From the IMG/VR virus record IMGVR_UViG_2534682349_000001: a stretch of 64,000 nt of DNA, one strand, 5' to 3'. The translations under genes and the position numbers were made by a program. Below the pieces are notes generated by a model. The model did not search any database. It was given only the letters and a program-made list of their open reading frames with translations, and had not been told where the DNA came from. Shown here in pieces: positions 27,341 through 64,000 of this stretch (positions are counted from its first letter, which is position 1; each line of letters starts with the position of its first letter). The stretch is from a virus (Duplodnaviria > Heunggongvirae > Uroviricota > Caudoviricetes).

Positions 27341-27513
27341 TATTTACTCCTCTTGTTGAACTCACACTTGCGGATTGTGTTTATCTCAAAGGTCTCCATC
27401 AATGCTCTACTAGGTTATCCAATACTTACCATATCCGCATTTATGACTTTCTTGGGTGGTATCCAAACTTGGTGAGAATAAATCAAATACTTAATTTTAA
27501 TATTTGATTTAAC

Positions 27514-27913: not shown

Positions 27914-28476
27914 AGAATGCTTATTGGACTGGATTTGAACCAGTATCATGACCCAACCACTTCCTAATTCTGATCAGCTTAATCAGACACGACAACTGTC
28001 GCTCGGATTTGCACCGAGATTAGTTGGGTCTCTGACCTTGTAACATCAGCTAAATATTACTTTTAGAGTCACTACAATAAGCGGTATCCACCCAGAAACG
28101 TAAGATAGTAGATTGATAAGTTAAGAGCTTGTTGACTGTGCTAAGTATCAGTCTGATTACTCTTAGAGCTTATATCTTTTTGATGGACATTGACTTAGCA
28201 ATTCTGTCCACGAAAAGTAATCGATAGGACAACCACCAACCTACCTTGTAGAAACGCTGTTAAGCTTTCGTGGTCATGGTCACTCATTCTACTTTCACGG
28301 GGTTCGCCATGACGCGAGCCGCTTGGCTTTTCTTAATAGCCTGCCCAGGCTACCAAAATACAACACTTATTAATAAATAAGTGAAGCGCCATGATTTAGG
28401 CACATATCCACATTTGTTTTCCCTTACACGTTGACCTTTATCCTACTTTGCCGAGGAGGCAACTGCTTATCGGGAA

Positions 28477-28531
28477 TAGTCCTGTTGGGAATCGAACCCA
28501 ATTAATCTTCCTAGTACCATCAGACAGGACT
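28477..28531 (-). tRNA. mini tRNA-like element (about 55 nt): acceptor plus T arm with one 23-nt internal segment
   Basis: Acceptor AGTCCTG/CAGGACT, T arm TTGGG-TTCGATT-CCCAA. Too short for a cloverleaf. Confidence 0.25.
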
Positions 28532-29239
28532 CCAAACATAATACATGTATCGTTTCTTGGTTTATCGGAAGAAACTTGTTAGAAAAGACCGTATCACACT
28601 TTAGGGAAGTGATGGTCCCGGCGTTTTACCGCCGATTAAGGAGTCAAGGTCCAAGTTATCATCTACTATTTTTGGCGTGCTCCCTATTCTTATACACGTC
28701 CTTGGCATCGCAATGCTACAGGGAGAGAGGTTTCATACTATTGTTTCGAGGCCCAACCTTCCAGCCAAGTAGAATCCCATCTAAAACTGGGTATAGCTCC
28801 AGTACGCTCATCTCATTATCAAATGAGATATTTATAAAAGAAGCATTTTACTAACAGAAGGCATAAACTGTCATTCTTCCCACTAGTGGTCAGAACTTTT
28901 TCTAGACTGCTTTTTATTTTTCAAAGGCTTCCGCCAATAACTAGTATGACTTGCAATCTTGTGTTTGTATTATTCAGGGTGTAGATTACCAGATCACCCG
29001 AACCCGCAACCTGAGAATTAAACCCAGCATTAACTTAGGCAATATCTGCATCGCAGGTAGTCGCACACGCAACCATAACAATAAGAAGCGTGGCATCAAT
29101 CACATTACGAGCATTAGAAACTCCTCCAGTTGTGAGTAGGATACCTCGTATAAATCACATTACTGCCATTTATACTCAAGCGCTTCAACCGACATACCTG
29201 TTGCCGGTTTTCCTATTATACATATCCATATAACAGAAA

Positions 29240-44740: not shown

Positions 44741-44913
44741 GTCAATCCCCTATATTGTGCCTATTCCTAATCAATCTAAACAATTGTATTATACATTTAA
44801 TTATAATTCAAATCTATATATTAAATACAATTGTGTTGTTATATTAACACTTTTTTAAATAGCTATGAATAGAATAGACTATATTCTTCCTAGGCAAACC
44901 AGATATTAGTAAA

Positions 44914-45954
44914 CTAATTCAGTGCTTTATGATCCTTGCCGGCACGATATACCATATTTTCAATTTCAGGGCGCGAATGAATTAACATTAATAATTGTTC
45001 TTTAGAGAGGTTATCAATTTCTGAGTAATCATAATCTGACGTTAACATTGCCGTCCCCGTCATAGTAGGATCTGTTTGATTATGAATATATTTTTCTGTA
45101 TTTGCTACACTTTCATGATCAAGAAAATCCTTTACCAACATAATATCTTTTGTTTGGTAATAAAGTGTCGTGGCCGCGCCTGCACGTAACGAGTGAGGAG
45201 ATAGCTTATGATTAATCTTCCTACTGAAATCACGAAAAGCATTTTTTAACGACTCATGCGATAATTCACCAAAAACAAATTCTTCGTCACTACCCGTAAA
45301 GAGCAAATCATGTAAATTCTGGTAGTAGCTTAATGTAAGGTATTTAGTATTTAACTTGTGCCCCTTATCAATCACATCTAAACGAGCAAAACGAGTACCG
45401 TCATGTGCAACGATAAATTGAAAATCTATCCATTTGATTGAAAACGTAGCCGTGACACGAATACCAGTTTTGAACATAAAGTCTACTAACTCGGCATATT
45501 TTTTACCCATCATTCGATCTTGGTCGTCACGATATTTTCTTTTGGTTAAAAAATCCTTAAACTGATCTAATTCTTCTAACGAGATTGCTTCATGATGCTT
45601 TACATCATTAGTTTTTAACGTTTTGTCCGTTAACACATAATTATTTAAATCGTCAATATTGGCCTTATCATAAATACCTTCTTTTTTAATCATCTTCATT
45701 AAAGACCTAACCGCAATTAAATGTCCCTTAATGGTTGAGCCTTTAATATCATTTTTCTTAAGTGGTGTAACAAATTTGTTCAATACGTCACTGTATCGCA
45801 AATGAACTAAATCAAATTCGGAAATTTCTGTTGGCTTTTTCTTAAATACCATATTACTAAACAATGTCACGGAGCTTGTGTACTTATGAATTGTATTTGC
45901 TGATGCCAACGAATTAATCCACGTTCGATATACATTTATCATTTCTTCACTCAT
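44914..45954 (-). CDS. tyrosine recombinase / phage integrase family
   Basis: TGIRVTATF (R), LSPHSLRAGAAT (H-x-x-R), DFLDHESVANTEKYIH (H...Y). Start at ATG 45954 after a GGAGG RBS. Confidence 0.75.
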   Translation of the reverse strand: MSEEMINVYRTWINSLASANTIHKYTSSVTLFSNMVFKKKPTEISEFDLVHLRYSDVLNKFVTPLKKNDIKGSTIKGHLIAVRSLMKMIKKEGIYDKANIDDLNNYVLTDKTLKTNDVKHHEAISLEELDQFKDFLTKRKYRDDQDRMMGKKYAELVDFMFKTGIRVTATFSIKWIDFQFIVAHDGTRFARLDVIDKGHKLNTKYLTLSYYQNLHDLLFTGSDEEFVFGELSHESLKNAFRDFSRKINHKLSPHSLRAGAATTLYYQTKDIMLVKDFLDHESVANTEKYIHNQTDPTMTGTAMLTSDYDYSEIDNLSKEQLLMLIHSRPEIENMVYRAGKDHKALN

Positions 45955-46198
45955 ATCAATTCCTCCATATCTCACATAGCACAATGCGGATTTTATAAAC
46001 CAATACTAAAAATAGATAACTTTTATATCGTCTACCAATAAGTCAATTTCGAGCATTTAATTTTACTTACTCTTAAATAAATGATATAAAAGCTATAATA
46101 AAAAAACGGAGCCATTTAATACAGCTCCGTTTTTTCAATATTAATTATATAAATATTTTAATTAAAAATTATAAAATCCGCATTTTATTTCGTTTTTC

Positions 46199-47526: not shown

Positions 47527-47874
47527 CTATATACAAAAGTCATTAATTACTTTACTAAGTTGTCTTTTAACCTTGTTGAAATCTTCTAGTCGTAATTTAT
47601 CCATTGGTAAAGAACGCACTCTTTCACGAGAATAACAATGTATTTGTGTTGCATTTACTCGACCATATATATTTGCATAGCCCTGTAAATTAACGTAACC
47701 ATTAAAATAAGTTCCACCAGAAGTGATTGGTGCTACCATAAGGTAATTTGTATTGCGATTATATCGATCGTTAGAAATAATTACCGCTGGATGAATACCT
47801 TCCATCTCAGTATCTATAGCCGGACTAAAGTCTAAATAGATAATATCTCCCTGTTTATACTGTACTTTACTCAT
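47527..47874 (-). CDS. MazF/PemK-family endoribonuclease toxin
   Basis: GDIIYLDFSP...HPAVIISND.YN...LMVAPITS pattern characteristic of PemK/MazF. Start MSKVQYKQGD after a GGAG RBS. No recognisable MazE partner upstream. Confidence 0.7.
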   Translation of the reverse strand: MSKVQYKQGDIIYLDFSPAIDTEMEGIHPAVIISNDRYNRNTNYLMVAPITSGGTYFNGYVNLQGYANIYGRVNATQIHCYSRERVRSLPMDKLRLEDFNKVKRQLSKVINDFCI

Positions 47875-47912
47875 AATTTTCTCCATTCTACATTGTAAAA
47901 ATGTCATTTTAA

Positions 47913-48710: not shown

Positions 48711-49124
48711 TTAGTGGTGGTCTTGCTCTTTGATTCGACTTGAATGTTCTTTTAAGAACTTTGCTACTTTAAGCATAATTTCTTCGGTATCATCCTGTGT
48801 AGTAATACCAAGCATTAAAGCTATACCCTCATCCTTAGTAACTTTGAGATGATAATCATTTTTCATTAAGAACAGCTTTGTAGCAACGTAAGCTGTTCTT
48901 TTATTTCCATCAGAAAATATATGCTTTTTTGTAATCTTCTGCATTACATACGCGGCTTTAACCCAAATTGTTGGGTATAATTCCGCACCAAAAACAACCA
49001 TCTGTGGCTGTTCAACTACTAAACTTAAACCTTCCGGGTATTGTAGCCCATAAACTCCTTCACCCGCTTTTCTAATCACTTGTTTATTTACAGCTAAAAT
49101 TTCTTTTTCTGTTAAATATTCCAT
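48711..49124 (-). CDS. doc: Doc (Fic-family) toxin
   Basis: Fic/Doc motif HIFSDGNKRTAYVATKLFL (HxFx[D]GNKR). 137 aa. Preceded by a small AbrB-type gene with a 1-nt intergenic gap. Confidence 0.8.
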   Translation of the reverse strand: MEYLTEKEILAVNKQVIRKAGEGVYGLQYPEGLSLVVEQPQMVVFGAELYPTIWVKAAYVMQKITKKHIFSDGNKRTAYVATKLFLMKNDYHLKVTKDEGIALMLGITTQDDTEEIMLKVAKFLKEHSSRIKEQDHH

Positions 49125-51612: not shown

Positions 51613-51900
51613 TTAATCCTGGAACAATACTGAATAGTCATCTGCTGTTTTATCTATATATTTTTCAGCATATTCAACTTCGTCATTAATTTTCTCTCCG
51701 TTGAGTAGTGGCAAACCCTCACCACCTAACCAATTATCAAATTCTTCGGCGCTCAAAACTGTACACATCAATTCTTCAATACCCTGACAGATAATTGTCT
51801 CGTTCTCCTCTTCAACAACAAAATTCAGAATGTAAAAGTCACCTTGGAGTTCATTAATTCCCGCAAATTTGATAGTCATTTCCAATTTCCTCACTTTCAC
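51613..51900 (-). CDS. hypothetical acidic protein
   Basis: 95-aa ORF. Confidence 0.4.
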   Translation of the reverse strand: MKVRKLEMTIKFAGINELQGDFYILNFVVEEENETIICQGIEELMCTVLSAEEFDNWLGGEGLPLLNGEKINDEVEYAEKYIDKTADDYSVLFQD

Positions 51901-51959
51901 GAATGCTGTTACATCAACGTTTATAACACTAAAGTTTCTTTATAAAATACATATTTTAT

Positions 51960-52241
51960 CTAAATTGATAGATAGCTCAATTTTTCTCTAACAATTTCAT
52001 CTTTTACCCGTATTGCCTTTTCCCAAACACTTTCACTACATGGATATTTGTAACCTGCAAACTTGATCGCATTAACTATTTCGGTGTAGTAAGATGAACA
52101 CCCCGTAGTTGCATACCATTCAGCAACTCCACCCATGAAATCAATTTGACTTTGAGGCATCTGCTTGATTTCGTCGATATAATCAAAATTGATTTCGATT
52201 ACCTTCTTTAAGTAGTTTTTCATTTTATCTAATTTACTCAT
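51960..52241 (-). CDS. hypothetical protein
   Basis: 93-aa ORF. Confidence 0.4.
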   Translation of the reverse strand: MSKLDKMKNYLKKVIEINFDYIDEIKQMPQSQIDFMGGVAEWYATTGCSSYYTEIVNAIKFAGYKYPCSESVWEKAIRVKDEIVREKLSYLSI

Positions 52242-52268
52242 TTTCTATTTCCTCCAATTCTGTAATTT

Positions 52269-52541
52269 TTAATACTGGGCACCAATTAGCCACCATTTAC
52301 TTCCAGGTAAATCTTCATCATCTCTCCAATTTCCTGACTGGCTATCAATAAATGAACGATAATCACTATCGTTTTCATATTGTTCCCGATCGACTTCCTC
52401 ACAACCAATTGCTTCATATTCGTAACCTAAATAACCGGCATTTACGATTTTTGTTGCTAATTCCTCATCGCCACTAACTTCCCACTGTACCAACCAATCG
52501 AATAAGGTTTTCTGGTTTTTTGTCCAAATTGATTTTTCCAT
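52269..52541 (-). CDS. hypothetical acidic protein
   Basis: 90-aa ORF. Confidence 0.4.
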   Translation of the reverse strand: MEKSIWTKNQKTLFDWLVQWEVSGDEELATKIVNAGYLGYEYEAIGCEEVDREQYENDSDYRSFIDSQSGNWRDDEDLPGSKWWLIGAQY

Positions 52542-52580
52542 TTTTAATTTCCTCCGTTTATCTAAAAATTCTTTTCGCTT

Positions 52581-52952
52581 CTACCAATTAGGAAAAACAT
52601 ATTTTTCTTTAACAATAGTTGTTTGACTAACGGGCATTGCTCCGGCAATACCAACTAATTTATGCTTTTCTACACTTTCACCATCTTCTTGTGGATAGGC
52701 AAACACTTGAATATCCTCGGTTTCCTCGTCGTCCATATCCTCAATGTATTCCAGCAATTCATTTTCGTCGTAAAACCCTTCAAGTTCATTACCGAACCAA
52801 TCGCAAATACTGAAATACCAGGACTTACGAATTAACTCACCATCAAAGTAGTCGTCTGGCTTAATCCATTTGAAGGTAACAGGATAATTTTCTCGGCGAT
52901 AGTGTAATTTCTTCATGATAAATTCCTCCTTGATAATTTCTTTTCTAGTCAA
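52581..52952 (-). CDS. hypothetical acidic protein
   Basis: 123-aa ORF. Confidence 0.4.
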   Translation of the reverse strand: MTRKEIIKEEFIMKKLHYRRENYPVTFKWIKPDDYFDGELIRKSWYFSICDWFGNELEGFYDENELLEYIEDMDDEETEDIQVFAYPQEDGESVEKHKLVGIAGAMPVSQTTIVKEKYVFPNW

Positions 52953-53255
52953 CTATGGTTCTACAAACTTATCTAATCGTTCACGGTCAATGTTGATAAT
53001 ATACATACCCATATCAACACTGTACTCAATACTGTTAAGCATTCGCCAAAATACCAAGCCCGCTCGTGCGGAATTCATTTTTTCTGCATAATTACTAATT
53101 TTCTCAATAAACAGTTCTAATAACTCCTTTGGTGTAGCTCCTGCTAGAATAATTTCTTCATCCAGGTAAATAACATCGTCATCAAGTTGTGCTGTTGTTG
53201 TGATACAATCCTTCTTAATTTTCTCAAGTGCGTTATCAGTCCAAGCCATTTCCAT
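52953..53255 (-). CDS. hypothetical protein
   Basis: 100-aa ORF. Confidence 0.4.
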   Translation of the reverse strand: MEMAWTDNALEKIKKDCITTTAQLDDDVIYLDEEIILAGATPKELLELFIEKISNYAEKMNSARAGLVFWRMLNSIEYSVDMGMYIINIDRERLDKFVEP

Positions 53256-53309
53256 TTCCTCCAGTTAGTTAATTTATTTTCTGTTCAGTAATTAATAGTG
53301 ATAATTTCT

Positions 53310-53639
53310 TTATTTCTTAACGTTGACCAATTCAATACCATCAGCGCCTTCACCCTGTTGCCCCACAATTTTTTGTGACTTATCAGTAGGAACAACAACA
53401 AGGGTGTAATCACCATCGCCTTGATCGTGGTACTCAACCTCGAAATTCTGAGTTTTAATAGTGTCGTCATTCTTGAGCGATAAATTCTTTTGCTTGTGAC
53501 CAATAGTCTTACTAATAATTTTTGCTTCACTATGCATCGTGATTGCGTCTGAGCGTGATTCACATGATGAAATAATCCAGCCGGTAACGCTTACGATAGT
53601 TGTTAGGGTTAATACGATTAGTGCAATATTTTTCTTCAT
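53310..53639 (-). CDS. putative lipoprotein
   Basis: Signal peptide with lipobox IISSC. Confidence 0.45.
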   Translation of the reverse strand: MKKNIALIVLTLTTIVSVTGWIISSCESRSDAITMHSEAKIISKTIGHKQKNLSLKNDDTIKTQNFEVEYHDQGDGDYTLVVVPTDKSQKIVGQQGEGADGIELVNVKK

Positions 53640-53674
53640 GGTTATTTGTCCTCCGAGTGGTTGTATTGTGTGGT

Positions 53675-54208
53675 TTATAGATTTTCTTCTTTAAATTGAT
53701 TAATGATTTCACTTGCATGATTGTTAAGCATTTCTTGGCATTGATGTTCGCTCATGCTTTCAAAGTTACCCACTTCATTAATGAAAAAGTAATCATCGTC
53801 CCAGCTTTGAATTTTGCCAAAGTATGTGGCACGCGCTGCCTCTACTGGATCAATTCCTAACTCTGTGATTAATTCATCAAGGCTTTCGGTCATGTAATCA
53901 GGTAAGTATAAGTTTTGCTTACTTTGGCTATCTAGTGAATTGAATACCTCCTCAATAGTGTCATAATTTTCCAGTGCTTTAGCCAATTCATTTAACCGAT
54001 ATAAGCTATCGTATTCACTAATTGCGAATGGTGCTTCATAGTCGCTGATAAACCATTCATCGTGGTAACCTTGCTTGCTATCACCGCCCAGGTCTAACTT
54101 GTCCAAAATATCCTTGTTTACGTCATCAACTGGCAAAGTTGTCCATTGTCCAGTAAGTTCACCATCGTTGTACTTCGCTAAGTTTGAAACAAATACGTTA
54201 ATTTTCAT
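53675..54208 (-). CDS. hypothetical acidic protein (177 aa)
   Basis: ORF preceded by a conserved promoter-like motif. Confidence 0.45.
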   Translation of the reverse strand: MKINVFVSNLAKYNDGELTGQWTTLPVDDVNKDILDKLDLGGDSKQGYHDEWFISDYEAPFAISEYDSLYRLNELAKALENYDTIEEVFNSLDSQSKQNLYLPDYMTESLDELITELGIDPVEAARATYFGKIQSWDDDYFFINEVGNFESMSEHQCQEMLNNHASEIINQFKEENL

Positions 54209-54214
54209 GATATT

Positions 54215-54251
54215 TACCCCTTAATTAATATATTTTAGTATTTTCGTTGTG
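54215..54251 (-). promoter_or_regulatory. conserved promoter-like motif (TCACAACGAAAATACTAAAATATATT)
   Basis: Copy 5. Confidence 0.4.
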
Positions 54252-54271
54252 ATTAATAGTGTAAGATTACA

Positions 54272-54484
54272 TTAGTTTAGTAAGTTCGTCAATAGTGCCC
54301 GTAAAAGCGGGAGGGTCACTGCAATAACAATAACTGTAATGAATACAGCTAAAATACTGTACTTCTTAAACTTGATGAGCTTTTCGCTATCCTGTTCTAA
54401 TTGCTTAATGTATTCAGGATCAACCAACTTGTAATCCTGTTCAGCGTATTTCTGTAGTTCCTTTTGTGACATCATAATTATCAA
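54272..54484 (-). CDS. small membrane protein
   Basis: C-terminal transmembrane helix. First gene downstream of the tandem promoter array and its leader. Confidence 0.45.
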   Translation of the reverse strand: MIIMMSQKELQKYAEQDYKLVDPEYIKQLEQDSEKLIKFKKYSILAVFITVIVIAVTLPLLRALLTNLLN

Positions 54485-55030
54485 AACCCTTCTAATTTGT
54501 TTCAGCGGTTATTATTAATCGCTTTATATAGAGTCTTATCGTGCTGATAAGGCTCTCTAAAAACAATTAATAGTGTTCGTTAAGTGTCGTCAGTGTTTGT
54601 ATGTATAAACCCCGTCCAGTTCAAGCCCCACTTAATAGGCTAATCTTCCCCTTTTATGGTTCATACTCACGATTTATATGCTGCCACCATATAACCCGCC
54701 TTGCATTCGCTATCCAGTTTTCAAGCATTTCACTCAGTCCGTGGTAGTGTTTGCAAGTTTTATTTAATTTTCAAGGTTCGCCGTTGTAATTATTTCCCAC
54801 TTTGTGGAGGTCATTCTTTAACGGTAACGTTTACGCCCAGTCTGTAGAATTAGCACCATGCTCTCCACGTGCCCTGATCTTTCACCCGTTGCATAGCCTT
54901 GTTGGGTAGCTTTCACCATAACCCTAGGTGATAATAACGCCTTATCCAGACCCTTTTCGGTACAGTCTTGATTGAGTTGCGACTTACTAACGTTTTTTGA
55001 ATTGGTAACTTTCCAATTAGTTTGAGTATT

Positions 55031-55490
55031 TTATATTATAGCGTGAACGCTATATAAACAACCCATTTTTTATTAATCGCTCAAGGCTTGCGATTGCTTG
55101 TTGTTTGATTGTGTTTATATTATAGCGTGAACGCTATAATGTGTCAAGCCTTAATTTTAGAATTTTTAGCGGTTGACCTTGAAGTCAAAGTTAGATACTC
55201 AAGTGAACTCACTGTTTAATTCATTTATTAAGTTTGCACCTTTATTATAGTGTGAACGCTATAACGCGTCAAGAAGTAATTTTGATTAATTTTTATCGCC
55301 TAGGCTAGTTCGGTGACTGCTCTTTATTGCGATTAGTCGTTAATCAACTTTACGGCTTTTATTATAGCGTGAACGTTATAAATTGTCAACACCTTTTTCA
55401 AATTATTTTTTGAAGTTCGATGTTTAATTGTTGCCGTTGTCCTTTTGACGATTTTAATTATATAGCGTGAACACTATAAAGTCAACTATA
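55031..55490 (-). promoter_or_regulatory. tandem array of sigma-A consensus promoters (five copies, four near-perfect), each with a TATAGCG-TGAAC-CGCTATA-type palindrome in the spacer, all firing leftward
   Basis: − strand reads TTGACA-cattatagcgttcacgc-TATAAT (55116–55150), TTGACG-N17-TATAAT (55241–55276), TTGACA-N17-TATAAT (55357–55393), TTGACT-N17-TATAAT (55455–55490) and a weaker TTGTTT copy (55031–55062). Spacing is about 110–120 bp. Confidence 0.6.
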
Positions 55491-55522
55491 AATTTAAAAT
55501 AAAAAACAATAGCGATAAAATG

Positions 55523-55759
55523 CTATTGTTGCAAATCCTTTAAACGTTGTTCTATATCAGAATGTAAGTCTTTTAAGTCTTTTATATATTGTATTCTGTT
55601 TTCATTGATTGCTTTTGCGCCTTTTGTATTTCCTTTAAGGTCTATTAAAACAAATGAGCGCGCCGCCCTTTTCTTTTGATTGTAAGTAACATTTAACGGA
55701 TTTTTTGCGTTCCAGTTGCTAACGGCTTTTAATTGCGCTTTACTCGTTTTGTTTTCCAT
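55523..55759 (-). CDS. small basic protein, paralog of 56355..56582
   Basis: Start MENKTSKAQLKAVSNWNAKNP... after an AAGAGG RBS. Shares the K..S.N.W..KN...V.Y pattern with the divergent + strand gene. Confidence 0.4.
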   Translation of the reverse strand: MENKTSKAQLKAVSNWNAKNPLNVTYNQKKRAARSFVLIDLKGNTKGAKAINENRIQYIKDLKDLHSDIEQRLKDLQQ

Positions 55760-56354
55760 TCTTTCGCCTCTTTTCGTTATAAAGTACACGTTATAATTAT
55801 TATAACATACTCACGCCCCTAACAGAATAGAAAATAACACCCCTTTATTTTTCTATATAAGGAAAGAAAAATATAATAGAAAAATTAGCAAACAAAAAAA
55901 TAAATATAGGTTGACTATTGATAATTATGTGTTATGATAATATACGTAAGCTATTAGAATAGCTTATCAACCCGCATCATCTACGGCTATTTTTATAGTG
56001 TAGAAAAGAGGTGTAAGCGTGGTTGATGGCGTTCTTAGCGCCTTTATGCATTTTTCAATCGCTTTATATATATTAAGTATTGCATTACTTAATTTACAAA
56101 AGTTTTATAAAAAATTGCATAAGAAAAAGCCAAAACGTAAAAATAAAAAACGTTAAGGCTTAAAATGCTTATATATCGAGGGAACGTGGCGCCGTTCCCT
56201 TTTTGTTAATTGTATAATACCACAATAAAAAGGGTGTGTAAAGTTATGCAAATTATTATAAATAGTTTAGTTTTATTAGTTAGTATTTTTTTAGTTATGT
56301 TGAGTGTTCTCAATTTTAGAAAGTTTATTAAAAAATTAAAGGGGTAATAATTAA

Positions 56355-56582
56355 GTGCCAAAGCCCAGAAAATTAACAGACAAACAACGAAAAGAAAGCG
56401 CAATTAATAGCGTTAAAAAGTGGGAATCTAAAAATAAAGATAAAGTAAATTATTATCAATATAAAAGTAAGGCGGTAAACTTTATAAATAAAAAATCTAC
56501 TGAAGAAGATTTAATTTTCTTAAAAAATTTGATTGATAATAAATTACTGGAATTAAAAAATAAAGATAACGATATAGGGTAG
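56355..56582 (+). CDS. small basic protein, paralog of 55523..55759
   Basis: GTG start after an AAAGGGG RBS. Begins (M)PKPRKLTDKQRKESAINSVKKWESKNKDKVNYYQYK. Confidence 0.4.
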   Translation: MPKPRKLTDKQRKESAINSVKKWESKNKDKVNYYQYKSKAVNFINKKSTEEDLIFLKNLIDNKLLELKNKDNDIG

Positions 56583-56599
56583 CACGTTAATATATAGCG

Positions 56600-57290
56600 T
56601 GTTGCCCTTTTGTATTGCGGTGATATGGTAGCGATTACATAATGATGTATATAGTGTAGCAGTATATAGGTAGTACAGTGATATGATGATGTGTGTAGTA
56701 GTGTGTATGATATTGATATGATAGTGTTATGCGTGTCTATGTATAGATGTATATAGGTTAGTGAGTGAGTAACGTTACATAGTGATGTATAGTGAAGTGA
56801 TGTGATAGTGTATTGATGTATATAATGTATTGAGTTAGTAACTGATTTACGTTTGTAGATATTAGATTGTCAAGGCGGAGAGTATAGTGTTGTGTAGCGT
56901 GATTAGTATGTTTGATATAGATGATAATGTTTTCATATGTTATTGTAATGATGGACCAAATGAATAGTATATTGATATGTATATGTATGTATAGAGTTGA
57001 TTGGTTAGTGAGTGAGTTTGGTGTACAGTGTTATGTATTATATTAGGGGTGTGGATTGAGTTACTAAGTGAGTGAATTTATTATTGTTTTGGTGAGCGGT
57101 TATGGTGTGATGTAATTAGTGAATTTATTTGGCGGTGTGAAGTGTGTTTTACTGGGTGTAGTGTTAGGTTGTTAAGGCGTGAAGTGGTGTGTATTAATTA
57201 GGTGTTTGGTGTGATATGTGTGGATGGGTGTTATTGAGTGTGAAGTGTGTTTGATTGTGTGATAGCTGATTACTATATACCAAATTCGAT
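56600..57290 (+). repeat. about 650–700-bp cytosine-depleted, GT/GA-rich low-complexity tract with degenerate short repeats (GTGAGTGAGT, GATATG, TGTATA)
   Basis: The + strand contains only a handful of C residues across about 650 bp. No ORF of 60 aa or more on either strand. Confidence 0.6.
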
Positions 57291-57377
57291 ATATTTAAAT
57301 TAGTGAAAAAGCACCCTACCTCTCAACTGAAATAAATATATTAAGTTTACAACTGTAACCCCTTATAAATAATAATC

Positions 57378-57408
57378 GCCCTTATCAAAAGATAGGGGCT
57401 TTCTTTTT
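57378..57408 (+). terminator. rho-independent terminator
   Basis: gcccttatc-aaaa-gataggggc stem-loop followed by tttcttttt. Confidence 0.6.
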
Positions 57409-57744
57409 CGATATTAAAATATTCTTGTAATCGTTTACACACGATAACAATTATTATTGTGTCTTAAATTTGCAAATAGGCGGGGGTTATTTTACTCAAA
57501 ACGCCTTAATTTTTAGGGGATTTTTTAGACTAGTTGCTTCACTCACACACCACAAAATTTTCCCCATTCACCCCATTTCTCGCACCCTATCACCCCTCAA
57601 ATAACCCAATAAATTACTACCAAATTCACCCTTTTCAAAACTATGAAAATATCTTTCATAATCTTTCATCACAATACCCCTGTCCCTTCCTCTCACCCTC
57701 CTCCATTCAACTATAAATAAAGAGCCTAGGAATTACCCTAGACT

Positions 57745-58071
57745 CTAATTCATCTCATTATTAATATACTTTTCTAACCCAACTCTGGTCTCGTCATCTA
57801 AATTAGCAATATACTCCCTATATTTACTCACATTACTCTTGTCAATACTACTGATTACATACAATATATACCCTTCGTATAGACCATCTGGACACTTTAA
57901 TAATCGCTGCATTAATCTCATCAAATAGTAATACTGCTCATCATAACCATCATTCATATATTTATTCTCAAATATATAATATGCAGTCCAAATAATATTA
58001 TCGTCCCTATTTTCTAAACTGGATATATTCCATAGTTCCTTAATTATAGTATCTAGTTTAACAATCTCCAC
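57745..58071 (-). CDS. hypothetical protein
   Basis: 108-aa ORF. Its 3' side runs into a G-free (on the + strand) stretch. Confidence 0.4.
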   Translation of the reverse strand: MEIVKLDTIIKELWNISSLENRDDNIIWTAYYIFENKYMNDGYDEQYYYLMRLMQRLLKCPDGLYEGYILYVISSIDKSNVSKYREYIANLDDETRVGLEKYINNEMN

Positions 58072-59404
58072 TGTCGTTTCCCCATTCTTATATTAAACGT
58101 ATGTTCTCTTGTTATAATACACGAACGAATGTTCTTTATCAAGTATTATCAGCAACTAGATACATATATCGCTTTGTAGTACATTTTCATATTTATGTTC
58201 TTAATGCCATATACCCAATTATTCTAATTTATGAAAATATTACGCACCCAAAATAGCCATTTTTTGAAACAAAGAAAATTACCCTCTCGCTTTCATGGCA
58301 ATTATTTTCATAAAATTACTCAAAACCACCCCAATTTGCAGCCAAAATAATCTTCGAAACTCCCTATGAACAATTCATCAATTCACAAACTTTCGACTTC
58401 TACACAAACAACATTACTGAATTTAATTATGCTTTGTGAAATTTTCTTCACTAATTCAAGAATTCAATTCCAAATAACTAAAATATGAGTAAAAATTGTT
58501 ATGAAAACATCATTTTATGCACACCTAACTTATTTACGAAACAATCTGTCTTATTGTATAAAACTAGAAATTCATCAATCTTAATATTTCGCACCCTACT
58601 ACTCATGTAACTAACCCTATCGAAACTCCCTATTTTTAATTTTGATATTTTTATTCAAATCACTGAATTTTTTTACCAAAAAATGAACTAATACCAACTC
58701 CTATTTAATAGGATCTAGTAGTACTTTTTTATAATTATTATTCACTTGAGACATCTATTAGTACATCTTCGATAATACAAGGGTTTTCAAACATCTAATT
58801 CCAGAAAATTTCACAAACTTAAAAAGGGTGCGAGGTATTTTTACTCTAATAACCTATAATTATATGTTTCGTATTGGTTCATTATTTCCACTCAGACTAT
58901 TTTTCATAATTACGCCGCCATTTATCCATTGTAATAGGAAGAAACCCTCTATTTTCTATCACTACTTTTATTGTCGCTTGTGAAGTCATCAAAAAATGCT
59001 ATTTCATTTTTATGTAACTATTCTCGCCTTCTTTTTCTCTTTAAACACAGCCAAACATCAACGTAGAATGGACTTAACGGGTCATAAATCAAAATTACAT
59101 TAATTTATCTAAATCAGCTCTTAGCTCCATTATTCATTGTTCGTTTTGATTGTTTATGAGCAATAATTATGTAGGTCAATTATTAAAGCAGCTATTCCAC
59201 AAGTTCCTTTAAATAAAAAACAGCGACAGTAAATACCACCGCTGAAATAATTACGGATTACTTACGTAACCACTTACTAATCTTTTTAATTAGCTTTTTA
59301 ACGTGCTTATTAGGCACGAACAATATTATTAAGCACCAATGCGACACAAGGAGTTACCTCCTCTCTGCACTAGTCGGGTTTCCTACGCCCGCTCAAATGT
59401 GCTT

Positions 59405-59538
59405 TTTAATTGTATCATATTAATTTCATGTTATAATATATATAACAATATTATTAAGCCGTGTGCATCGTGGGTGCTTCCTAACTCACGGATCGGTTTA
59501 ACGTGGGGCGCCCTGATAGGCGCTCTTTTTTTGTTTTA
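59405..59538 (+). ncRNA. candidate small RNA unit (promoter TTGTAT-N15-TTATAAT to terminator)
   Basis: A promoter-like element at about 59408–59436, about 95 nt of structured sequence, then the terminator gcgcc-ctgata-ggcgc plus T9 at 59505–59538. A 16-nt direct repeat AACAATATTATTAAGC also heads a similar unit at 59320. Confidence 0.3.
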
Positions 59539-59679
59539 AATGTGTTAAAATGTGTATATCAAGATAAGAAAGATATACCGAGTGTATATTGGTTTCAGTT
59601 GACTACTTGAATCAAACTCGTTAGAGATAGAGTATCTATATGAATAGGTGCTCTATCTTTTTATTTCTCAGATTGAATT

Positions 59680-59760
59680 ACAAGTGACTTCTATATGACT
59701 TCTTTAGACAATAACAGTTAAGCTCCTCTATTCCTTATAATTCAATTTGAAGTCACGGTG
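59680..59760. repeat. TGACTTC / GAAGTCA centromere-like repeats downstream of the adaptor gene
   Basis: gtgacttc (59684), atgacttc (59696), ttgaagtcac (59747). Confidence 0.45.
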
Positions 59761-59811
59761 GCTTCTAGTCGTAAATTAAAAAGGACTCAAGTTTCCTTGA
59801 GCCCCTTTTAA

Positions 59812-60150
59812 TCACAATGAAGAGAACATGCCTAAATCTGCTTTACTTTCACTATCGTTTTTTTTATCATCCGGCTTATTTTTGACTTCAGTTTTAATGT
59901 TTGAATCAGTTGTTTCCGACTTATCAGCATTCACTTTGCCGTCATTTTTCACTTTTTCTTCATCTTTGGCACTCAGTGCGACCTGTTTGGGAACAATTTT
60001 TCGATAATCATCAAATCCATAATTGCCGATGATAGTTCGTATAGCAGCATCTATTGAGTCGCCTTTTTTGCTCTGCTTAGCCATCCATTGGCCGATATCA
60101 TCTTCTGAATCATACCTAAATGTAAATGTCTTGGTACTCATATCACTCAC
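59812..60150 (-). CDS. putative ParR/Alp7R-like DNA-binding adaptor of the actin-like segregation system
   Basis: Small basic gene immediately downstream of the actin-like ATPase in the same operon; the N-terminus may carry an RHH-like fold. Lys/Asp-rich tail. Confidence 0.4.
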   Translation of the reverse strand: MSDMSTKTFTFRYDSEDDIGQWMAKQSKKGDSIDAAIRTIIGNYGFDDYRKIVPKQVALSAKDEEKVKNDGKVNADKSETTDSNIKTEVKNKPDDKKNDSESKADLGMFSSL

Positions 60151-60155
60151 CTATT

Positions 60156-61361
60156 TTAAGCAGCATTCTTCGCAATGTACCAGAGTCCATCACGATTTAA
60201 CGTTTGAGCATAAGGCGCTGGAATCCAAAGTACAGGAACAACTTGTCCCCCATTATATGACTTCAGTTTTTCTTCAAGTTTTGTACGCAACTGACTTTGA
60301 TCTTTCATGGGAATTGACCCACCACCATGTACAGTAGCTACCTCAATTCCGGCACCAGCTTTACGCAATGCACGACTAACCTCATCAACAATACGATCAC
60401 AGAAAGGTTCTAGTTGAGCAAATACGATCTTTTCAACTGCATTATAGCGTGCTCGACTCAATGGAGAAGGTTTGCTTGCCAGGAATTCTTTTAATTCAGC
60501 AACGCTTGCAAAGTTGTATCTCTTATCTTCGAGAACCTCTAACGCTTCTTGAAGAGCGTTGTCATATCCCTCTGATAGAGAGAATGATGCAACTGTTAAA
60601 GCCTTACCATTGATAATAACAACAATATCTACTGTGCCAGCACCAATATCAATGCTAACTACATTCTTGGCATGAATTAAATCCTCGGCGCTAACAAGAG
60701 AAGCTAACTCTGGATAGTGCTCATCGAAGTCAGCTTTAATTTTTGTAGTAAGATCTTTGTTTTCTCCAGTAGAGATATAGAATTGTGCAGTTTCTCCTTC
60801 AGTAGCAACAAATACCTTATCAAATTCAATATTTACAGTAATTGGGTTATTGAAGTTATGAAATGTTACCTGATGTGTGCTTCCATTATAACGAGAACGA
60901 TACATATTCTTAACGTTAATATCACTACCTTCTTTTACTGGAAGGGCCACAGCCATTTTGCTCTTGACTTTAATCGGCTCAGATAAATCAGAACCTTTAC
61001 TATATGCGTTCTCTACAGCTGCTCCAGCAATCATACTCAATGAAAGAATTAATGAATAATCACTTTCAGACTTACCTGCATAATCATTAATATCAAAATG
61101 AGTAAGTGGTAAGTTTTTATCCATTGCGTATTGTCCAATTAAAAAACGTCCTGGAGTTTTTACTGCACTACTAGAAATAGTCACATCCATATGGTTGATG
61201 AAATCTTTCATGTAGTCATCTTTTTGACCTTTACTCTCGAACTCAATTGGAGAAGCGATATCCTGTTCACGTTCAATAGTGAAAACAGATGGAAACTTGA
61301 TTTCCTTGTCATCGATAATTGCCTTAACCGAACCATATCCTAAATCATTTGCTACTTTCAT
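60156..61361 (-). CDS. actin-like segregation ATPase (ParM/Alp family)
   Basis: N-terminal phosphate-1-like DLGYGSVKA and phosphate-2-like IDIGAGTVDIVVI motifs of the actin/Hsp70 fold. 401 aa. Confidence 0.65.
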   Translation of the reverse strand: MKVANDLGYGSVKAIIDDKEIKFPSVFTIEREQDIASPIEFESKGQKDDYMKDFINHMDVTISSSAVKTPGRFLIGQYAMDKNLPLTHFDINDYAGKSESDYSLILSLSMIAGAAVENAYSKGSDLSEPIKVKSKMAVALPVKEGSDINVKNMYRSRYNGSTHQVTFHNFNNPITVNIEFDKVFVATEGETAQFYISTGENKDLTTKIKADFDEHYPELASLVSAEDLIHAKNVVSIDIGAGTVDIVVIINGKALTVASFSLSEGYDNALQEALEVLEDKRYNFASVAELKEFLASKPSPLSRARYNAVEKIVFAQLEPFCDRIVDEVSRALRKAGAGIEVATVHGGGSIPMKDQSQLRTKLEEKLKSYNGGQVVPVLWIPAPYAQTLNRDGLWYIAKNAA

Positions 61362-61405
61362 AGTTAGTCCCTCCGTATTTCATCTTCACATAATATTATA
61401 CTTCA

Positions 61406-61520
61406 TTTTGACTTCTTTTTGAAGTCGTTTTAGAAATTTAATTGATTTATTTTTTGAATTTGACTTCAAAATGAATTGTATGTGACATCTTAAAGTTTAC
61501 ATGACTTCTTTTTGACTTCC
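61406..61520. repeat. TGACTTC direct/inverted repeats upstream of the actin-like gene (parC-like centromere/operator)
   Basis: ttttgacttcttttt-gaagtc (61406–61426), tgacttc (61461), atgacttc (61501), ttgacttcc (61512). Confidence 0.5.
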
Positions 61521-61543
61521 AAATCACTTTAGTAACATGACAC

Positions 61544-61580
61544 TTGTAACTTGATACATGTAATTTGTAACTTGTAACTA
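61544..61580. repeat. TTGTAAC repeats (three copies) downstream of the parA operon
   Basis: acttgtaac, tttgtaac, ttgtaac. Confidence 0.4.
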
Positions 61581-61613
61581 AAAAATAATAAAGGCTAAAT
61601 ACCTTTATATATC

Positions 61614-61880
61614 TTAATTGTTGAAGTATTTTTTATAATTAGAAAACATTGGACTATCCAATCCTTCTAACAACATCTGATTTGTCACATCTAACATACT
61701 TCTTTTTTCTTCAAAAGCAATCCTTCTTATTAACTCGTAAAGCTCCAAAGAAATTCTTGTCGTCTTAGTTTCGTTTGTTCCTAAACGATAGGGATTAACG
61801 TCACCACCAACACGTTTACCTTCTTTTTTCCCTACAACTTCACTAGCTTCTTCAAGTACATCAAAATCATCTTTAGCCAT
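61614..61880 (-). CDS. ribbon-helix-helix centromere-binding protein (ParG-like partner of ParA)
   Basis: 88 aa. The C-terminal TTRISLELYELIRRIAFEEKRSMLDVTNQML fits an RHH fold. Directly downstream of parA. Confidence 0.5.
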   Translation of the reverse strand: MAKDDFDVLEEASEVVGKKEGKRVGGDVNPYRLGTNETKTTRISLELYELIRRIAFEEKRSMLDVTNQMLLEGLDSPMFSNYKKYFNN

Positions 61881-62659
61881 TAATCTTCATCTCCCATTCG
61901 ATACAACATTTCATGGAAAACCAAACTATACATTTCATGAGTTTCCTTGTCATGTCTATCTGTTTTCTTGTGTGTAATTCCCTTGTCGCTCCATCGTGTC
62001 ACTCTATCTCTATTATAAATTTCGTTACTAAATACTGATTTACCAAAATTGTCTCGAAGCTCCTTGGCAATTTCTTGATTCGTTCGATTAGATTTCGTAA
62101 CTAAATATAATATAAACCCAGGAACCTTAAATGGTAATTTAAAGTCTTTTCTAAGACCTGTTAAATAGGTAATAGAATCTTTCAACGCATTATATCCTGA
62201 TCGTTGAGCAGGAACTGGAATAAAAACATAATCAGCAGCAAAAACAGCATTATGTGTAAAATCACTTGTTCGAGGCGGTACGTCAATCAAAATATAATCA
62301 TAATTCTCTTTTATCTTATCAATAGCCTGTTCTAGAATAGTATTTTTTGCTAATTGAGGTAATTTTTCCAATGCCGACGGCCATAAACTTAATTTCCAAC
62401 TTCCTGGAATTACATCTAGATTGTCATCCAATGTAACAATCGCTCTTGCCAATGCATTATTTTTTAACGCCTCAACAATACCATAATGTGTCTTTATTTT
62501 CCCATATCCCGCCTCTAAAAATTGCGTAGCATTTCGTTGTGGGTCAAAATCTATTAATAACACATGTTTGCCATCTTTGGATAAATGATCAGCAGCCAAC
62601 ACTGAAAGAGTAGTCTTACCAACTCCTCCTTTATAATTGTAGAAAACCAAAGTAGACAT
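61880..62659 (-). CDS. parA: ParA/Soj-family partition ATPase
   Basis: Deviant Walker A YKGGVGKTT, then DFDPQ and the remaining ParA motifs. 259 aa. Confidence 0.85.
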   Translation of the reverse strand: MSTLVFYNYKGGVGKTTLSVLAADHLSKDGKHVLLIDFDPQRNATQFLEAGYGKIKTHYGIVEALKNNALARAIVTLDDNLDVIPGSWKLSLWPSALEKLPQLAKNTILEQAIDKIKENYDYILIDVPPRTSDFTHNAVFAADYVFIPVPAQRSGYNALKDSITYLTGLRKDFKLPFKVPGFILYLVTKSNRTNQEIAKELRDNFGKSVFSNEIYNRDRVTRWSDKGITHKKTDRHDKETHEMYSLVFHEMLYRMGDED

Positions 62660-62705
62660 AGGTTTTACACCTCCACTTCTTTATTTAATTACATCTTACT
62701 AAATA

Positions 62706-62755
62706 TTGTAACAAATTACAAGATACTTGTTACTTGTAACAAGTGATATGTAACT
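62706..62755. repeat. TTGTAAC / GTTACAA inverted and direct repeats upstream of parA (parS/operator-like)
   Basis: ttgtaac (62706), cttgttac (62726), ttgtaacaag (62734), atgtaac (62749). Confidence 0.45.
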
Positions 62756-63277
62756 GCCATAGTAATGAATTTATCGTTTACTTTTCCGACGCATTGTTGT
62801 ATCTTTAAATCGTAAGTTAATCTAGAACTTAACTGAATATCTAATTATTATGATTAACTTCTACAACACAAAACGATTTTATATCTACCCGAAAATAAAT
62901 AAATATCATACACTATCAAAGTATATATTCGTTAGATAGTGTTATTTAAAGGTGATTTAATAGAACCACGCAAAATATATTAAGCATTATTATGATATTG
63001 CTATTTAAATCCGGGTATGGTATCTTATATTACATACCACGAACTGTGGTGTATTTTAGGCGAACCAAGTTTGAGAAGGATTAGGCACCCTTTGATAACT
63101 ATTAAAACTGAATAAAGAGTATAAAAAAAGACCCAACCATTAGGCGTTTGGTTAGATCGACAAAGTAAATTTTTTCATAATTTGTATGTATTTATAATAC
63201 CATACTTTGTCGATTAATCAAGAGGTTGAGCTTGTTTTCTTATACTCATTTTCAAATAAATGACTAGGAGAAAACCA

Positions 63278-64000
63278 ATGAATAACCAAAAAGCGTTTCT
63301 AGGTATCAACCTAGATTTACTCGAAAACCCAAAATATAAGAATCTAGACTCCCGTGCAATGATGTTGTACGCTCTTTACGCTGACCGCTATTCTGCATCA
63401 ATGAATAACGCTCGTTTAGGGAATACTGCATTTGTTGATGACATGGGGGTCTTTATTCGTTTTACGAATGAATTAGCTGCTAAAGTACTTCACGTATCAA
63501 AACAGAAAGTGACAGATTTTCGAAAAGAATTATCTGACTTAGACTTGATCAAGGTCGTTCGTGAAGGTTTAAAGGGTTACAAAATCTATGTTTATCCAGT
63601 TCAACAAACACCAAGTAATGTTGAGCTTCTTTTGCCATGGAAAAATCACACTATTACTGTTCAAAAAGTAACTTCTGATTGGACTATTTTATCTAAAATT
63701 GAATTCTGCAAAAACCTTAAATTATCTACTCAAAATGTTGATATTAGCGTGAGTCGGATTTCTGAATCCACGTGCTCCTCAAAAACCGATACTAGTTTAT
63801 CTCACTCTAGTTTATCTCATGTATTTTTAAATAATAATGGTTTGGATAATAACGCGCGTGCGCGTAAAGAAAATGAAATCCAACCCAATCAATCAAACAA
63901 GAATCCATATCACTCTTTACCAGAAAAGATAAAGAGTTCATTTGTTGATGTATTTGGTTTTATTACAAAGCCTATGGCTATTGAACTACATTCTCTAATC
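63278..64000 (+). CDS. RepA_N-family replication initiator, 3'-partial (runs off the window end)
   Basis: The N-terminus AFLGINLDLLENPKYKNLDSRAMMLYALYADRYSASMNN...FIRFTNELAAKVLHVSKQKVTDFRKELSDLDLIKVVREGLKGYKIYVYPV matches the RepA_N pattern (Y.vP..L....YK.Ls..AklLY.lL.DR.sLS..N...D..G.vyi.ft.eeL...L..s..ti.k..keL...gLI...R.Glg..n.IYV). No stop codon before 64000. Confidence 0.7.
   Translation, partial: MNNQKAFLGINLDLLENPKYKNLDSRAMMLYALYADRYSASMNNARLGNTAFVDDMGVFIRFTNELAAKVLHVSKQKVTDFRKELSDLDLIKVVREGLKGYKIYVYPVQQTPSNVELLLPWKNHTITVQKVTSDWTILSKIEFCKNLKLSTQNVDISVSRISESTCSSKTDTSLSHSSLSHVFLNNNGLDNNARARKENEIQPNQSNKNPYHSLPEKIKSSFVDVFGFITKPMAIELHSLI

Follow-up and report, generated by a model that had tools for sequence, protein, structure and literature searches.

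A RepA_N maintenance module with predicted antisense-RNA control in a probable SPbeta-like phage-plasmid of Limosilactobacillus reuteri

RepA_N replicons have been described before, as have phage-plasmids and SPbeta-like plasmidial phages, and a 64,000-nt stretch of viral DNA (IMG/VR record IMGVR_UViG_2534682349_000001; the whole of this stretch is hereafter called the window) carries at its right end a repA gene and partition genes that can be compared with described members of each. In the Enterococcus faecalis plasmids pAD1 (repA-repBC) and pCF10 (prgW-prgPO), the RepA_N gene is divergent from the genes of a small ParA and of a small DNA-binding partner, short repeats flank the par operon on both sides and, in pAD1, two iteron clusters flank repBC. 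The phage SPbeta integrates into the chromosome and is not known to have a plasmid replicon. In pSK41 of Staphylococcus aureus, the origin is composed of four Rep boxes and sits centrally in rep, while a counter-transcribed RNA (ctRNA) of ca. 83 nt with two stem-loops (RNAI) lies on the rep leader ca. 100 nt upstream of the start codon, together with a stem-loop that sequesters the ribosome-binding site (RBS) (PMC5703833). According to the same review, published in 2017, antisense control systems of RepA_N replicons seem to be absent from genera other than the staphylococci (PMC5703833). In Limosilactobacillus reuteri ATCC 53608, the element pI (LN906635) has been reported as a RepA/ParA megaplasmid whose leading strand carries 98.8% of the genes, and its circularity was confirmed by PCR (PMC4667477). 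Finally, the "big plasmidial" siphoviruses of Clostridioides difficile are circular, extrachromosomal and virion-forming elements of ca. 132 kb for which parM, but no RepA_N initiator, has been described (PMC5786514).

Comparative analyses indicate that the region of the window from 59.8 to 64.0 kb is probably the maintenance module of an SPbeta-like phage-plasmid of L. reuteri of ca. 130 kb, in which replication would be driven by RepA and kept in check by an antisense RNA. The repA gene (63278..64000, plus strand) begins with an ATG at 63278, is preceded by the Shine-Dalgarno (SD) sequence AGGAG at 63266-63270 and remains open for 241 codons up to the window end. As previously claimed by a reading made from the letters of this DNA (the sequence-only reading), the frame that runs off the window carries the N-terminal signature of RepA_N: its product matches the Pfam family RepA_N (PF06970) with 38.5 bits (E 1.1e-9; gathering cut-off 30 bits) over residues 8-85 and profile positions 4-76 of 76, and phmmer aligns it with the solved RepA N-terminal domains 4pta, 4pql, 5kbj and 4pt7 of pSK41 and pTZ2162 at E-values of 1e-5 to 1e-4. 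The coding region of this winged-helix DNA-binding domain (aa 8-85) extends over 63299..63532 on the plus strand. Along its whole length, RepA further matches the PHROG family "DnaD-like helicase loader" (E 1e-13). Homologues occur in 182 database clusters, mostly 78-100% identical and 357-368 aa in length, of which those bearing a name are repA in L. reuteri records; a scan of GTDB genomes for RepA returned 0 relatives. Based on these matches, the open frame is a genuine RepA_N initiator. It is also intact at the sequence level and not a truncated remnant, a possibility that the sequence-only reading had itself raised: contig L005, which is 100% identical to window positions 51880-64000 over 12,121 nt and ends 3.3 kb beyond the window, contains a complete repA of 361 aa with a normal stop, so that the frame is cut by the window edge and not by evolution. 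By this contig the gene would end at ca. 64363, with its last 120 codons lying beyond the window. Directly downstream of repA, ca. 190 bp past its stop and ca. 550 bp past the window end, L005 encodes on its minus strand (1979-2737) a 252-aa protein whose N-terminal part weakly matches the PHROG family of RepA (phrog_186, E 2.8e-5); the gene of this protein, a second hypothetical gene and HU are kept beside repA in phage-plasmids and ordinary plasmids alike.

All DNA matches to the window correspond to L. reuteri. Over its full length, the window shows synteny at 85-92% identity to three replicons that were deposited as plasmids, CP102426 (128.8 kb), CP065541 (132.6 kb, circular) and LN906635, that is pI (138.5 kb), with which it shares, in the same order, tRNAs, thymidine kinase, NAD salvage, DnaB, RecD, recombinases, toxin-antitoxin, ParM, ParA and repA. 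Unlike the window, pI has a different ParA and a RepA that is only 50% identical, and par and leader modules are shuffled between the relatives. In this comparison the window represents the non-structural half of the 129-139 kb relatives. In these, the genes found downstream of repA are, in order, HU, a YonG-like gene, the large terminase, the portal, head and tail genes, a 9-kb gene for the tape-measure protein, XhlA, a holin and LysM lysins, with terminase and portal lying within ca. 4-5 kb of repA and the virion genes spread 4-60 kb downstream of it; to the left of the region matched by the window are a DNA ligase, DNA polymerase III alpha, a PD-(D/E)XK nuclease and a GH25-LysM lysin. The large terminase of the relatives is 44% identical to YonF of SPbeta and 39.5% identical to that of phiCD211, over at least 96% of the length, and their portal belongs to phrog_2739 (E 2e-110). 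The linkage of repA with terminase and portal was observed at 10 independent loci, including 7 IMG/VR viral contigs of up to 117 kb. In one contig that has the same ParA and ParM as the window (L004), repA, a YonG_N gene, the terminase and a YonD_N gene occur in a row. Plasmids of 108-148 kb in L. mucosae, Ligilactobacillus salivarius, Vagococcus, Bacillus and Clostridioides also carry relatives of the terminase, as do larger clostridial ones that reach ca. 210 kb.

The L. reuteri elements resemble SPbeta and the C. difficile phages phiCD211/phiCDIF1296T and phiCD5763 in their size of ca. 130 kb, their related terminase and their YonD/YonG-type genes; with the C. difficile plasmidial phages they also have in common DNA polymerase III alpha, ligase, helicases, tRNAs, a parM-like gene, a calcineurin-like phosphoesterase and toxin-antitoxin/Fic genes (PMC5786514). 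The relatives of the window thus combine the packaging and replication gene set with the size of the SPbeta-like or big plasmidial siphoviruses, and the window itself contains plasmid replication and partition genes, as a phage-plasmid would (repA, parA with its partner and parM with its partner). In contrast to the C. difficile phages and SPbeta, the L. reuteri maintenance module is common to the resident plasmid pool, and for the L. reuteri elements virions are only predicted. The view that the element replicates as a plasmid, put forward by the sequence-only reading, agrees with the existence of syntenic closed replicons in L. reuteri, one of which is circular by PCR, and with a GC skew switch at repA (see below). 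Its further proposal of a phage-plasmid finds support in the comparison with relatives that carry virion genes, the production of virions being putative.

Some observations do weigh against this identification, and they are those expected under the alternative that the element is a conventional large plasmid or a defective phage-plasmid derivative that no longer makes virions, its phage-like genes being domesticated or a decaying remnant. No structural, packaging or lysis gene occurs inside the 64-kb window. The one published result found on induction is negative, mitomycin C having been scored "No" in the pI-carrying strain ATCC 53608 (PMC6912086, Table 1), and PHAST rated the phage regions of this strain as incomplete prophage (PMC4667477). 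The same replicon (rep_cluster_2483), with its RepA/par module, is found on ordinary 52-99 kb L. reuteri plasmids with metabolic and adhesin cargo, so that RepA alone is silent on phage identity. One of these, CP139476 (98 kb), displays repA followed by two hypothetical genes, HU, a YonG-like gene and then a 67-aa N-terminal stub of the terminase that is 88% identical (ca. 5510-5711 of L035, which corresponds to NZ_CP139476.1 56000-70000), beyond which are found Dps, glutamate-cysteine ligase and a MucBP adhesin. In sequence terms, this case is evidence that members of the lineage turn from phage-plasmids into plain plasmids by decay and that loss of the virion module does occur. For the window this alternative is nevertheless rather unlikely: its 64 kb are syntenic with relatives that carry a full set of packaging, head, tail and lysis genes in their other half, terminase and portal lie beside repA in the closest contigs to share its ParA and ParM (L004 and, from IMG/VR, L032), and the 74-97% conservation of the virion module over many independent contigs speaks for purifying selection. 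Mitomycin, moreover, probes SOS-dependent induction only. A phage-plasmid remains the preferred identification; the transcripts, RepA binding and origin firing considered below, as well as any lytic cycle, are inferred.

Sequence conservation at the repA locus was analysed over 19 homologous loci, drawn from plasmids in PLSDB as well as metagenome and Logan contigs (RepA 74-100% aa identity), whose upstream regions were sorted into 3 or 4 diverged leader classes, the window belonging to class A. Chance occurrence was estimated with 100 shuffles for the window-wide count of the motif GTATGGTAT, 300 for repeat length and 500 for the covariation score, and helices were compared with slid controls.

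The likeliest location of the origin, given the conservation described here and the precedent of the central Rep boxes in pSK41, is inside repA itself. The candidate oriV (63789..63850, no strand assigned) is composed of two exact tandem copies of the 13-mer CTAGTTTATCTCA, at 63792-63804 and 63807-63819, and of an AT-rich tract, TGTATTTTTAAATAATAAT. A repeat of this length was reached in 1 of 300 shuffles, and it was absent from the motifs listed by the sequence-only reading. Repeats and tract correspond to codons 172-189, past the RepA_N domain and ahead of the conserved C-terminal part of the protein. Third codon positions at 63780-63860 are conserved at 0.93-0.98 among the 19 homologues, which is the highest value in the gene and is equalled only by 63345-63374 in the RepA_N domain, and the 40 nt to the left are among the most variable stretches of repA; this invariance indicates a constraint at the DNA level. 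A 12-mer core of the repeat is present in all 19 repA loci, with two copies in 16 and a single one in the other three. No cluster similar to the 13-mers was found elsewhere in the window, and no site resembling them in the spacer upstream of repA. The arrangement is like that of pSK41 in having a RepA_N N-terminal domain (4pql) and repeats in the part of rep that codes for the central linker, and unlike it in having two tandem 13-mers instead of four Rep boxes. RepA would bind these tandem repeats (63792-63819), which lie centrally in the gene that encodes it, and open the adjacent AT-rich tract, from which bidirectional theta replication would start. A DnaA-box-like sequence, TTATCCAAA (63843-63851, minus strand), was also considered and was dropped because it is polymorphic in most relatives.

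Base composition and gene order are consistent with an origin at repA: GC skew changes sign within repA in the 128.8-kb relative (skew minimum, L002), cumulative GC skew in the window is still falling at its right end, and gene orientation diverges from repA on both sides. As a separate observation, a full-length match to the Listeria small RNA family rli28 (RF01492) was detected at 15111-15286 on the plus strand, with 73.5 bits for a gathering threshold of 45; it is located near a switch of gene orientation and GC skew at ca. 14 kb, which is likely a replication terminus.

From its sequence, the spacer of 618 bp that separates parA and repA reads best as a copy-control unit made of a long repA leader, a ctRNA, a hairpin over the SD sequence and an upstream SD mimic, referred to as the pre-emptor. 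On the plus strand, the candidate repA promoter (62998..63026), assigned by consensus scans, lies ca. 90 nt upstream of the pre-emptor and consists of the -35 element TTGCTA (62998-63003), a 17-nt spacer and the extended -10 element TGgTATCTT (63018-63026); one copy of GTATGGTAT is contained in this promoter, and an alternative, TTTAAA-16-TATATT (63004-63031), overlaps it. Counterparts of this promoter are TTGCTA-17-TG-TATTTT in the divergent locus L020 and TTGTCT-17-TG-TAATAT just upstream of the class C pre-emptor. Transcription of repA would start from ca. 63033 and produce a leader of ca. 245 nt. In the minimum free energy fold of this leader, its predicted 5' end forms a small stem-loop, CATACCAC-gaact-GTGGTGTA (63033..63053, plus strand), that contains the motif ATACCAC; the stem is kept and the loop variable in L014, L002 and L007, and a role as 5' end stabiliser may be assumed. 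The pre-emptor, AAAGAGTATAAAAAAA (63114..63129, plus strand), is 88% complementary, as an inverted repeat, to the anti-SD arm at 63235-63250. The RBS-sequestering hairpin itself (63234..63275, plus strand) pairs an anti-SD arm at 63234-63251 with an SD arm at 63258-63275 (inverted repeat, 83% complementary); it has a free energy of -11.9 kcal/mol (z = -3.6), and equivalents built from other sequence occur in three other leader types with z-scores of -2.1 to -2.4.

On the minus strand, a sigma-70-type ctRNA promoter (63194..63221) is predicted by scan as the -35 element TTGATT (63221-63216), a 16-nt spacer and the extended -10 element TGgTATTAT (63202-63194), which on the plus strand corresponds to ATACCATAC. 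The ctRNA (63124..63187, minus strand) is predicted from this promoter and from an intrinsic terminator whose hairpin is located ca. 30 nt downstream of the promoter; it would be ca. 64 nt long with a single-stranded 5' tail. In plus coordinates the terminator consists of a 10-bp stem at 63130-63158 and of an A7 run at 63123-63129, that is U7 on the minus strand. A terminator hairpin is found in all leader classes with wholly different stem sequences, and the T-run occurs on the minus strand only. Counterparts of the ctRNA promoter in classes B and C are TTGAAA/TTGATT-16-TATAAT, with 10-11 of 12 consensus positions within diverged surroundings, and the ctRNAs of the relatives have 98-147 nt and two stem-loops. 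In class C, the loop of the terminator (equivalent to window positions 63140-63148) occurs in two orientations, AAGTGAGACG and CGTCTCACTT, in L009/L018/L011 and L019/L001, respectively, and in this perfectly palindromic hairpin it looks as if it had been flipped by recombination between the arms. In the leaders of L018, L001, L008 and L010, a near-copy of the repA translation start, GAGAAAAACAATGAATAACCAAAAG, was observed within the region covered by the ctRNA; the copy in L010 is degenerate and has lost its ATG, and such copies could act as a decoy start, encode a leader peptide or represent the scar of a recombination.

Two of these helices were followed through the leader classes by compensatory change. 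For the translation-initiation helices, per-sequence folds and a hand-registered helix were used; RNAalifold on the MAFFT alignment of the translation-initiation regions gave 0 pairs, this alignment not being structure-aware. The pre-emptor core, defined as the seven bases ending on the first A of the A-run, is complementary to the anti-SD arm in all classes, with the 7-bp combinations GAGTATA/TATACTC, GAGTACA/TGTACTC and AGGCATA/TATGCCT according to the leader class. On the registered alignment, 98.4% of the cells of this helix are paired and 4 of its 7 pairs have changed on both sides, a covariation score reached by none of 500 shuffles, for 17-57% paired in the slid controls. Cognate pre-emptor duplexes have predicted energies of -8.6 to -12 kcal/mol (-10 to -12 in 3 of the 4 leader types) and those combining classes A or B with class C of -3 to -8.7 kcal/mol. 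Likewise, RNAalifold identified 4 compensatory pairs among the 10 of the ctRNA terminator helix, of which 98.2% of the cells are paired (26-50% in the slid controls) with a covariation score of 0.447 versus 0.181 in shuffles, again reached by 0 of 500. The region upstream of repA is fast-evolving (conservation 0.3-0.8) and its RNA pairings are kept by compensatory change; as a sequence pattern, this is the signature of RNA structure and not of protein sites.

These elements suggest a mechanism in which a constitutive antisense RNA of ca. 64 nt would be produced from the convergent promoter (63221-63194), end at the intrinsic terminator (63158-63123) and pair with the leader, so that the pre-emptor (63114-63129) would be parted from the anti-SD arm (63235-63250). 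The freed anti-SD arm would then close the hairpin over the RBS (63258-63275), switching off repA translation, and copy number would be sensed as antisense-RNA dose. This would be the logic of RNAI in pSK41 without sequence homology. A promoter directed against rep with an intrinsic terminator, an antisense RNA on the leader ca. 100 nt upstream of the start codon and an RBS-sequestering stem-loop are all predicted here, as they are known in pSK41 (PMC5703833), but the RNA differs in length (ca. 64 versus ca. 83 nt) and, with one stem-loop and two in the relatives, in form, and it has no homology to the staphylococcal RNA by sequence or Rfam. Since an Rfam scan of 62600-63400 gave no credible match (E up to 10), the L. 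reuteri control would be an analogous system in the Lactobacillaceae and not a member of the staphylococcal one.

Other results speak less well for the replication and control scheme. In class A, no more than 9 of 12 positions of the ctRNA promoter agree with the consensus; this promoter was placed by homology with the other classes and by scan, the automatic best pick being a tie elsewhere. In the equilibrium fold of the free leader, the conformer with the SD hairpin (-56.0 kcal/mol) is favoured by 4.5 kcal/mol over that with the pre-emptor (-51.5 kcal/mol), and masking the ctRNA target in this fold leaves the SD pairing probability unchanged, so that any switch must be kinetic or co-transcriptional; the switch model is accordingly based on covariation and analogy and not on energetics. 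The leader covariation comes from only 3-4 independent lineages, with structures derived from the same sequences. Regarding the origin, the repA gene of pI has no tandem or direct repeats within the gene, and AlphaFold2 on an alignment of 13 RepA sequences gave a mean pLDDT of 37.5, which is too poor to judge whether the repeats encode a disordered linker.

The sequence-only reading had pointed to inverted repeats at 63000-63200 as candidate operator or origin sites. The motifs do exist: the 64 kb contain exactly two copies of GTATGGTAT, one at 63015-63023 on the plus strand and one at 63197-63205 on the minus strand, the right copy being ATACCATAC on the plus strand. They are, however, short and weak, the relatives do not keep them as a pair, and there is a single ATACCATAC and not several; the inverted match of ATACCAC (63034-63040) to 63018-63023 covers only 6 bp. 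A corresponding explanation, in which GTATGGTAT, ATACCAC, ATACCATAC and a 12-bp inverted repeat would be protein sites, either RepA iterons forming an origin or autoregulatory operators, draws on the position of the two GTATGGTAT copies, 182 bp apart and upstream of repA, which is suggestive even though at least two copies in the window were reached in 15 of 100 shuffles, and on the existence of upstream iterons in some theta replicons (PMC5703833). It also draws on the 12-bp repeat, ATCGACAAAGTA / TACTTTGTCGAT, which is perfect, was missing from the earlier list and has a length reached in 4 of 300 shuffles; its arms (63156-63167 and 63203-63214) would form a large hairpin of the leader (63156..63214, plus strand) enclosing the ctRNA start, and the repeat overlaps the spacer of the ctRNA promoter as an operator could. 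This repeat folds in both strands, different long-range inverted repeats occupy the equivalent place in the other leader classes, and an operator role may be considered for it. Protein sites are nonetheless an improbable explanation of the region as a whole. The GTATGGTAT pair is kept in the leader class of the window only, class B having the left copy and class C neither, and both copies fall on TGnTATnnT extended -10 boxes, each coinciding with the -10 of one of two convergent candidate promoters, so that in sequence terms they are most simply read as these boxes. In addition, the upstream motifs are unlike the intragenic 13-mers, they lie in a region that varies fast while the RNA pairings are kept by compensation, and in this family the precedent is an origin inside rep (PMC5703833). 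The proposal of upstream origin sites is thus not upheld, and the origin is better placed within repA.

Least probable by far is an integrated prophage with a truncated or inactive RepA_N gene, to which the two tyrosine recombinase genes at 43472-45984 and the frame running off the window might point, given that repA is full length in the 100% identical contig and 80-96% conserved over more than 100 database clusters, that the complete relatives are all separate circular replicons (PMC4667477 for pI), that no chromosomal flank occurs within the 64 kb and that a GC-skew origin signature is found at repA.

The maintenance module further includes two partition systems, as the sequence-only reading had stated. 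The first is encoded divergently from repA on the minus strand and begins with parA (61880..62659), whose 259-aa product is a PrgP-like Walker-type partition ATPase of type Ib. It matches Pfam AAA_31 (E 8.5e-38) and CbiA, the ParA-like PHROG family (E 1.6e-57) and, as its best NCBIfam hit, PrgP (E 1.6e-43) with 149 bits, far under the equivalog cut-off of 400. The gene that follows (61614..61880, minus strand) overlaps the parA stop codon and encodes a partner of ParA. This small protein of 88 aa probably binds the centromere; it has no Pfam or PDB match and by inspection only is probably ribbon-helix-helix-like. In relatives, non-homologous partners of ParA (DUF5388 or "RepC") are found at the same place. 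Upstream of parA, a cluster of TTGTAAC/GTTACAA heptads (62698..62755, no strand assigned) is a candidate par operator or centromere. It contains a palindrome with 9-bp arms, ACTTGTTAC-tt-GTAACAAGT (62725-62744), and two of the three exact copies of TTGTAACAA in the window, and it overlaps a minus-strand promoter, GTAACA-17-TG-TACAAT (62733-62705). A second heptad cluster is located at 61532-61580, just past the stop of the partner gene. The arrangement is like that of pAD1 and pCF10 in the RepA_N gene divergent from a small ParA and its small partner, in the PrgP affinity of ParA and in the repeats on both sides of the par operon, where the heptad clusters mirror the iteron clusters around repBC; it is unlike them in the unrelated partner, in having TTGTAAC heptads and not the iterons of pAD1, and in the presence of an additional ParM-type system.

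This second system (59812..61361, minus strand) is composed of a ParM/Alp-like actin ATPase (60156-61361; Pfam ALP_N and MreB-like_C, PHROG partition protein E 6e-30) and of a 112-aa ParR-like partner (59812-60150), with TTTTGACTTC repeats upstream of parM at 61400-61530 that form a parC-like site. Segregation of the replicon would accordingly involve two systems, one made of ParA, the small partner and the TTGTAAC heptads and the other of ParM and ParR. Among the relatives, the same repA is joined with three unrelated types of ParA and partner, so that par modules appear to be exchanged. Between parA and repA, a conserved 50-bp block (62775..62825, plus strand) with a promoter-like TTTACT-17-TATCTT directed towards repA is kept across two par types and all leader classes and is missing where the par module is of the DUF5388 type; promoter-like matches are also found in the relatives. 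Farther from repA, PemK/MazF (47527-47907) and Doc/Fic (48711-49124) toxins were detected, in agreement with the two toxin-antitoxin modules of the sequence-only reading, and toxins of these two types would fit in with post-segregational killing. Matches were likewise found for the phage-type genes that had been listed, namely a DnaB-like helicase, a RecD2-like helicase and an AAA_24 (Sak4-type) ATPase, as well as for the tRNA array; the window also encodes a metallophosphoesterase and, overall, 6-8 tRNAs and a tmRNA.

Several other features of the window were observed. The tmRNA (26002-26379, minus strand; Rfam RF00023, 76 bits) has the tag peptide ANNHRVTALAA, and the tRNAs (25605-29996, minus strand) are Phe, Ile-tat, Asn, Gln, Trp and Arg-tct, with two more detected by Rfam only. 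The two tyrosine recombinase genes mentioned above are adjacent on the minus strand and encode products of 422 and 356 aa; relatives have a third within the virion module. At 55020-55482, five palindromes of ca. 20 bp, TTATAGCGTGAACGCTATAA, are spaced 84-125 bp apart in an ORF-poor region of locally positive GC skew, and this array looks like repressor operators, perhaps for the control of lysogeny or early genes. Finally, ca. 700 bp at 56600-57300 are devoid of ORFs and contain degenerate GT-rich repeats such as GTGATATGATAGTGT and TGTATAGATGTATATAGG, possibly constituting a second cis-acting region that might serve as a lytic origin or in packaging, for instance.

In the literature, no description of the L. 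reuteri megaplasmids as SPbeta-like phage-plasmids was found, with the limit that supplements of phage-plasmid catalogues may list them; pI is described as a megaplasmid with an incomplete prophage, and no paper was found that calls LN906635/pI a phage-plasmid. Neither was any report found of ctRNA control in Lactobacillus RepA_N replicons. The present data fill in a known category and bring no new principle.

Tentatively, and with somewhat less assurance than is given to the identity of the module itself, the Lactobacillaceae may host a widespread and unrecognised lineage of SPbeta-like phage-plasmids, represented by the L. reuteri elements and by the terminase relatives of L. mucosae and Ligilactobacillus salivarius. 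Their maintenance cassette, with a RepA_N initiator and its intragenic origin, an antisense control new outside staphylococci and a swappable ParA, would be traded with plasmids, and loss of the virion half would give rise to cargo plasmids such as CP139476. L. reuteri is in wide use as a probiotic and serves as a model gut symbiont, and its megaplasmids of ca. 130 kb have so far been read as plasmids with incomplete prophages. The predicted antisense control would extend a mechanism documented so far in staphylococcal RepA_N plasmids only. If these megaplasmids are SPbeta-like phage-plasmids, the likely origin of several ordinary L. reuteri plasmids changes, repA with its internal origin and antisense copy-control RNA would provide a defined minimal replicon for vectors, and the mobility and safety of these elements would have to be judged anew, since they could transduce and swap modules with cargo plasmids.

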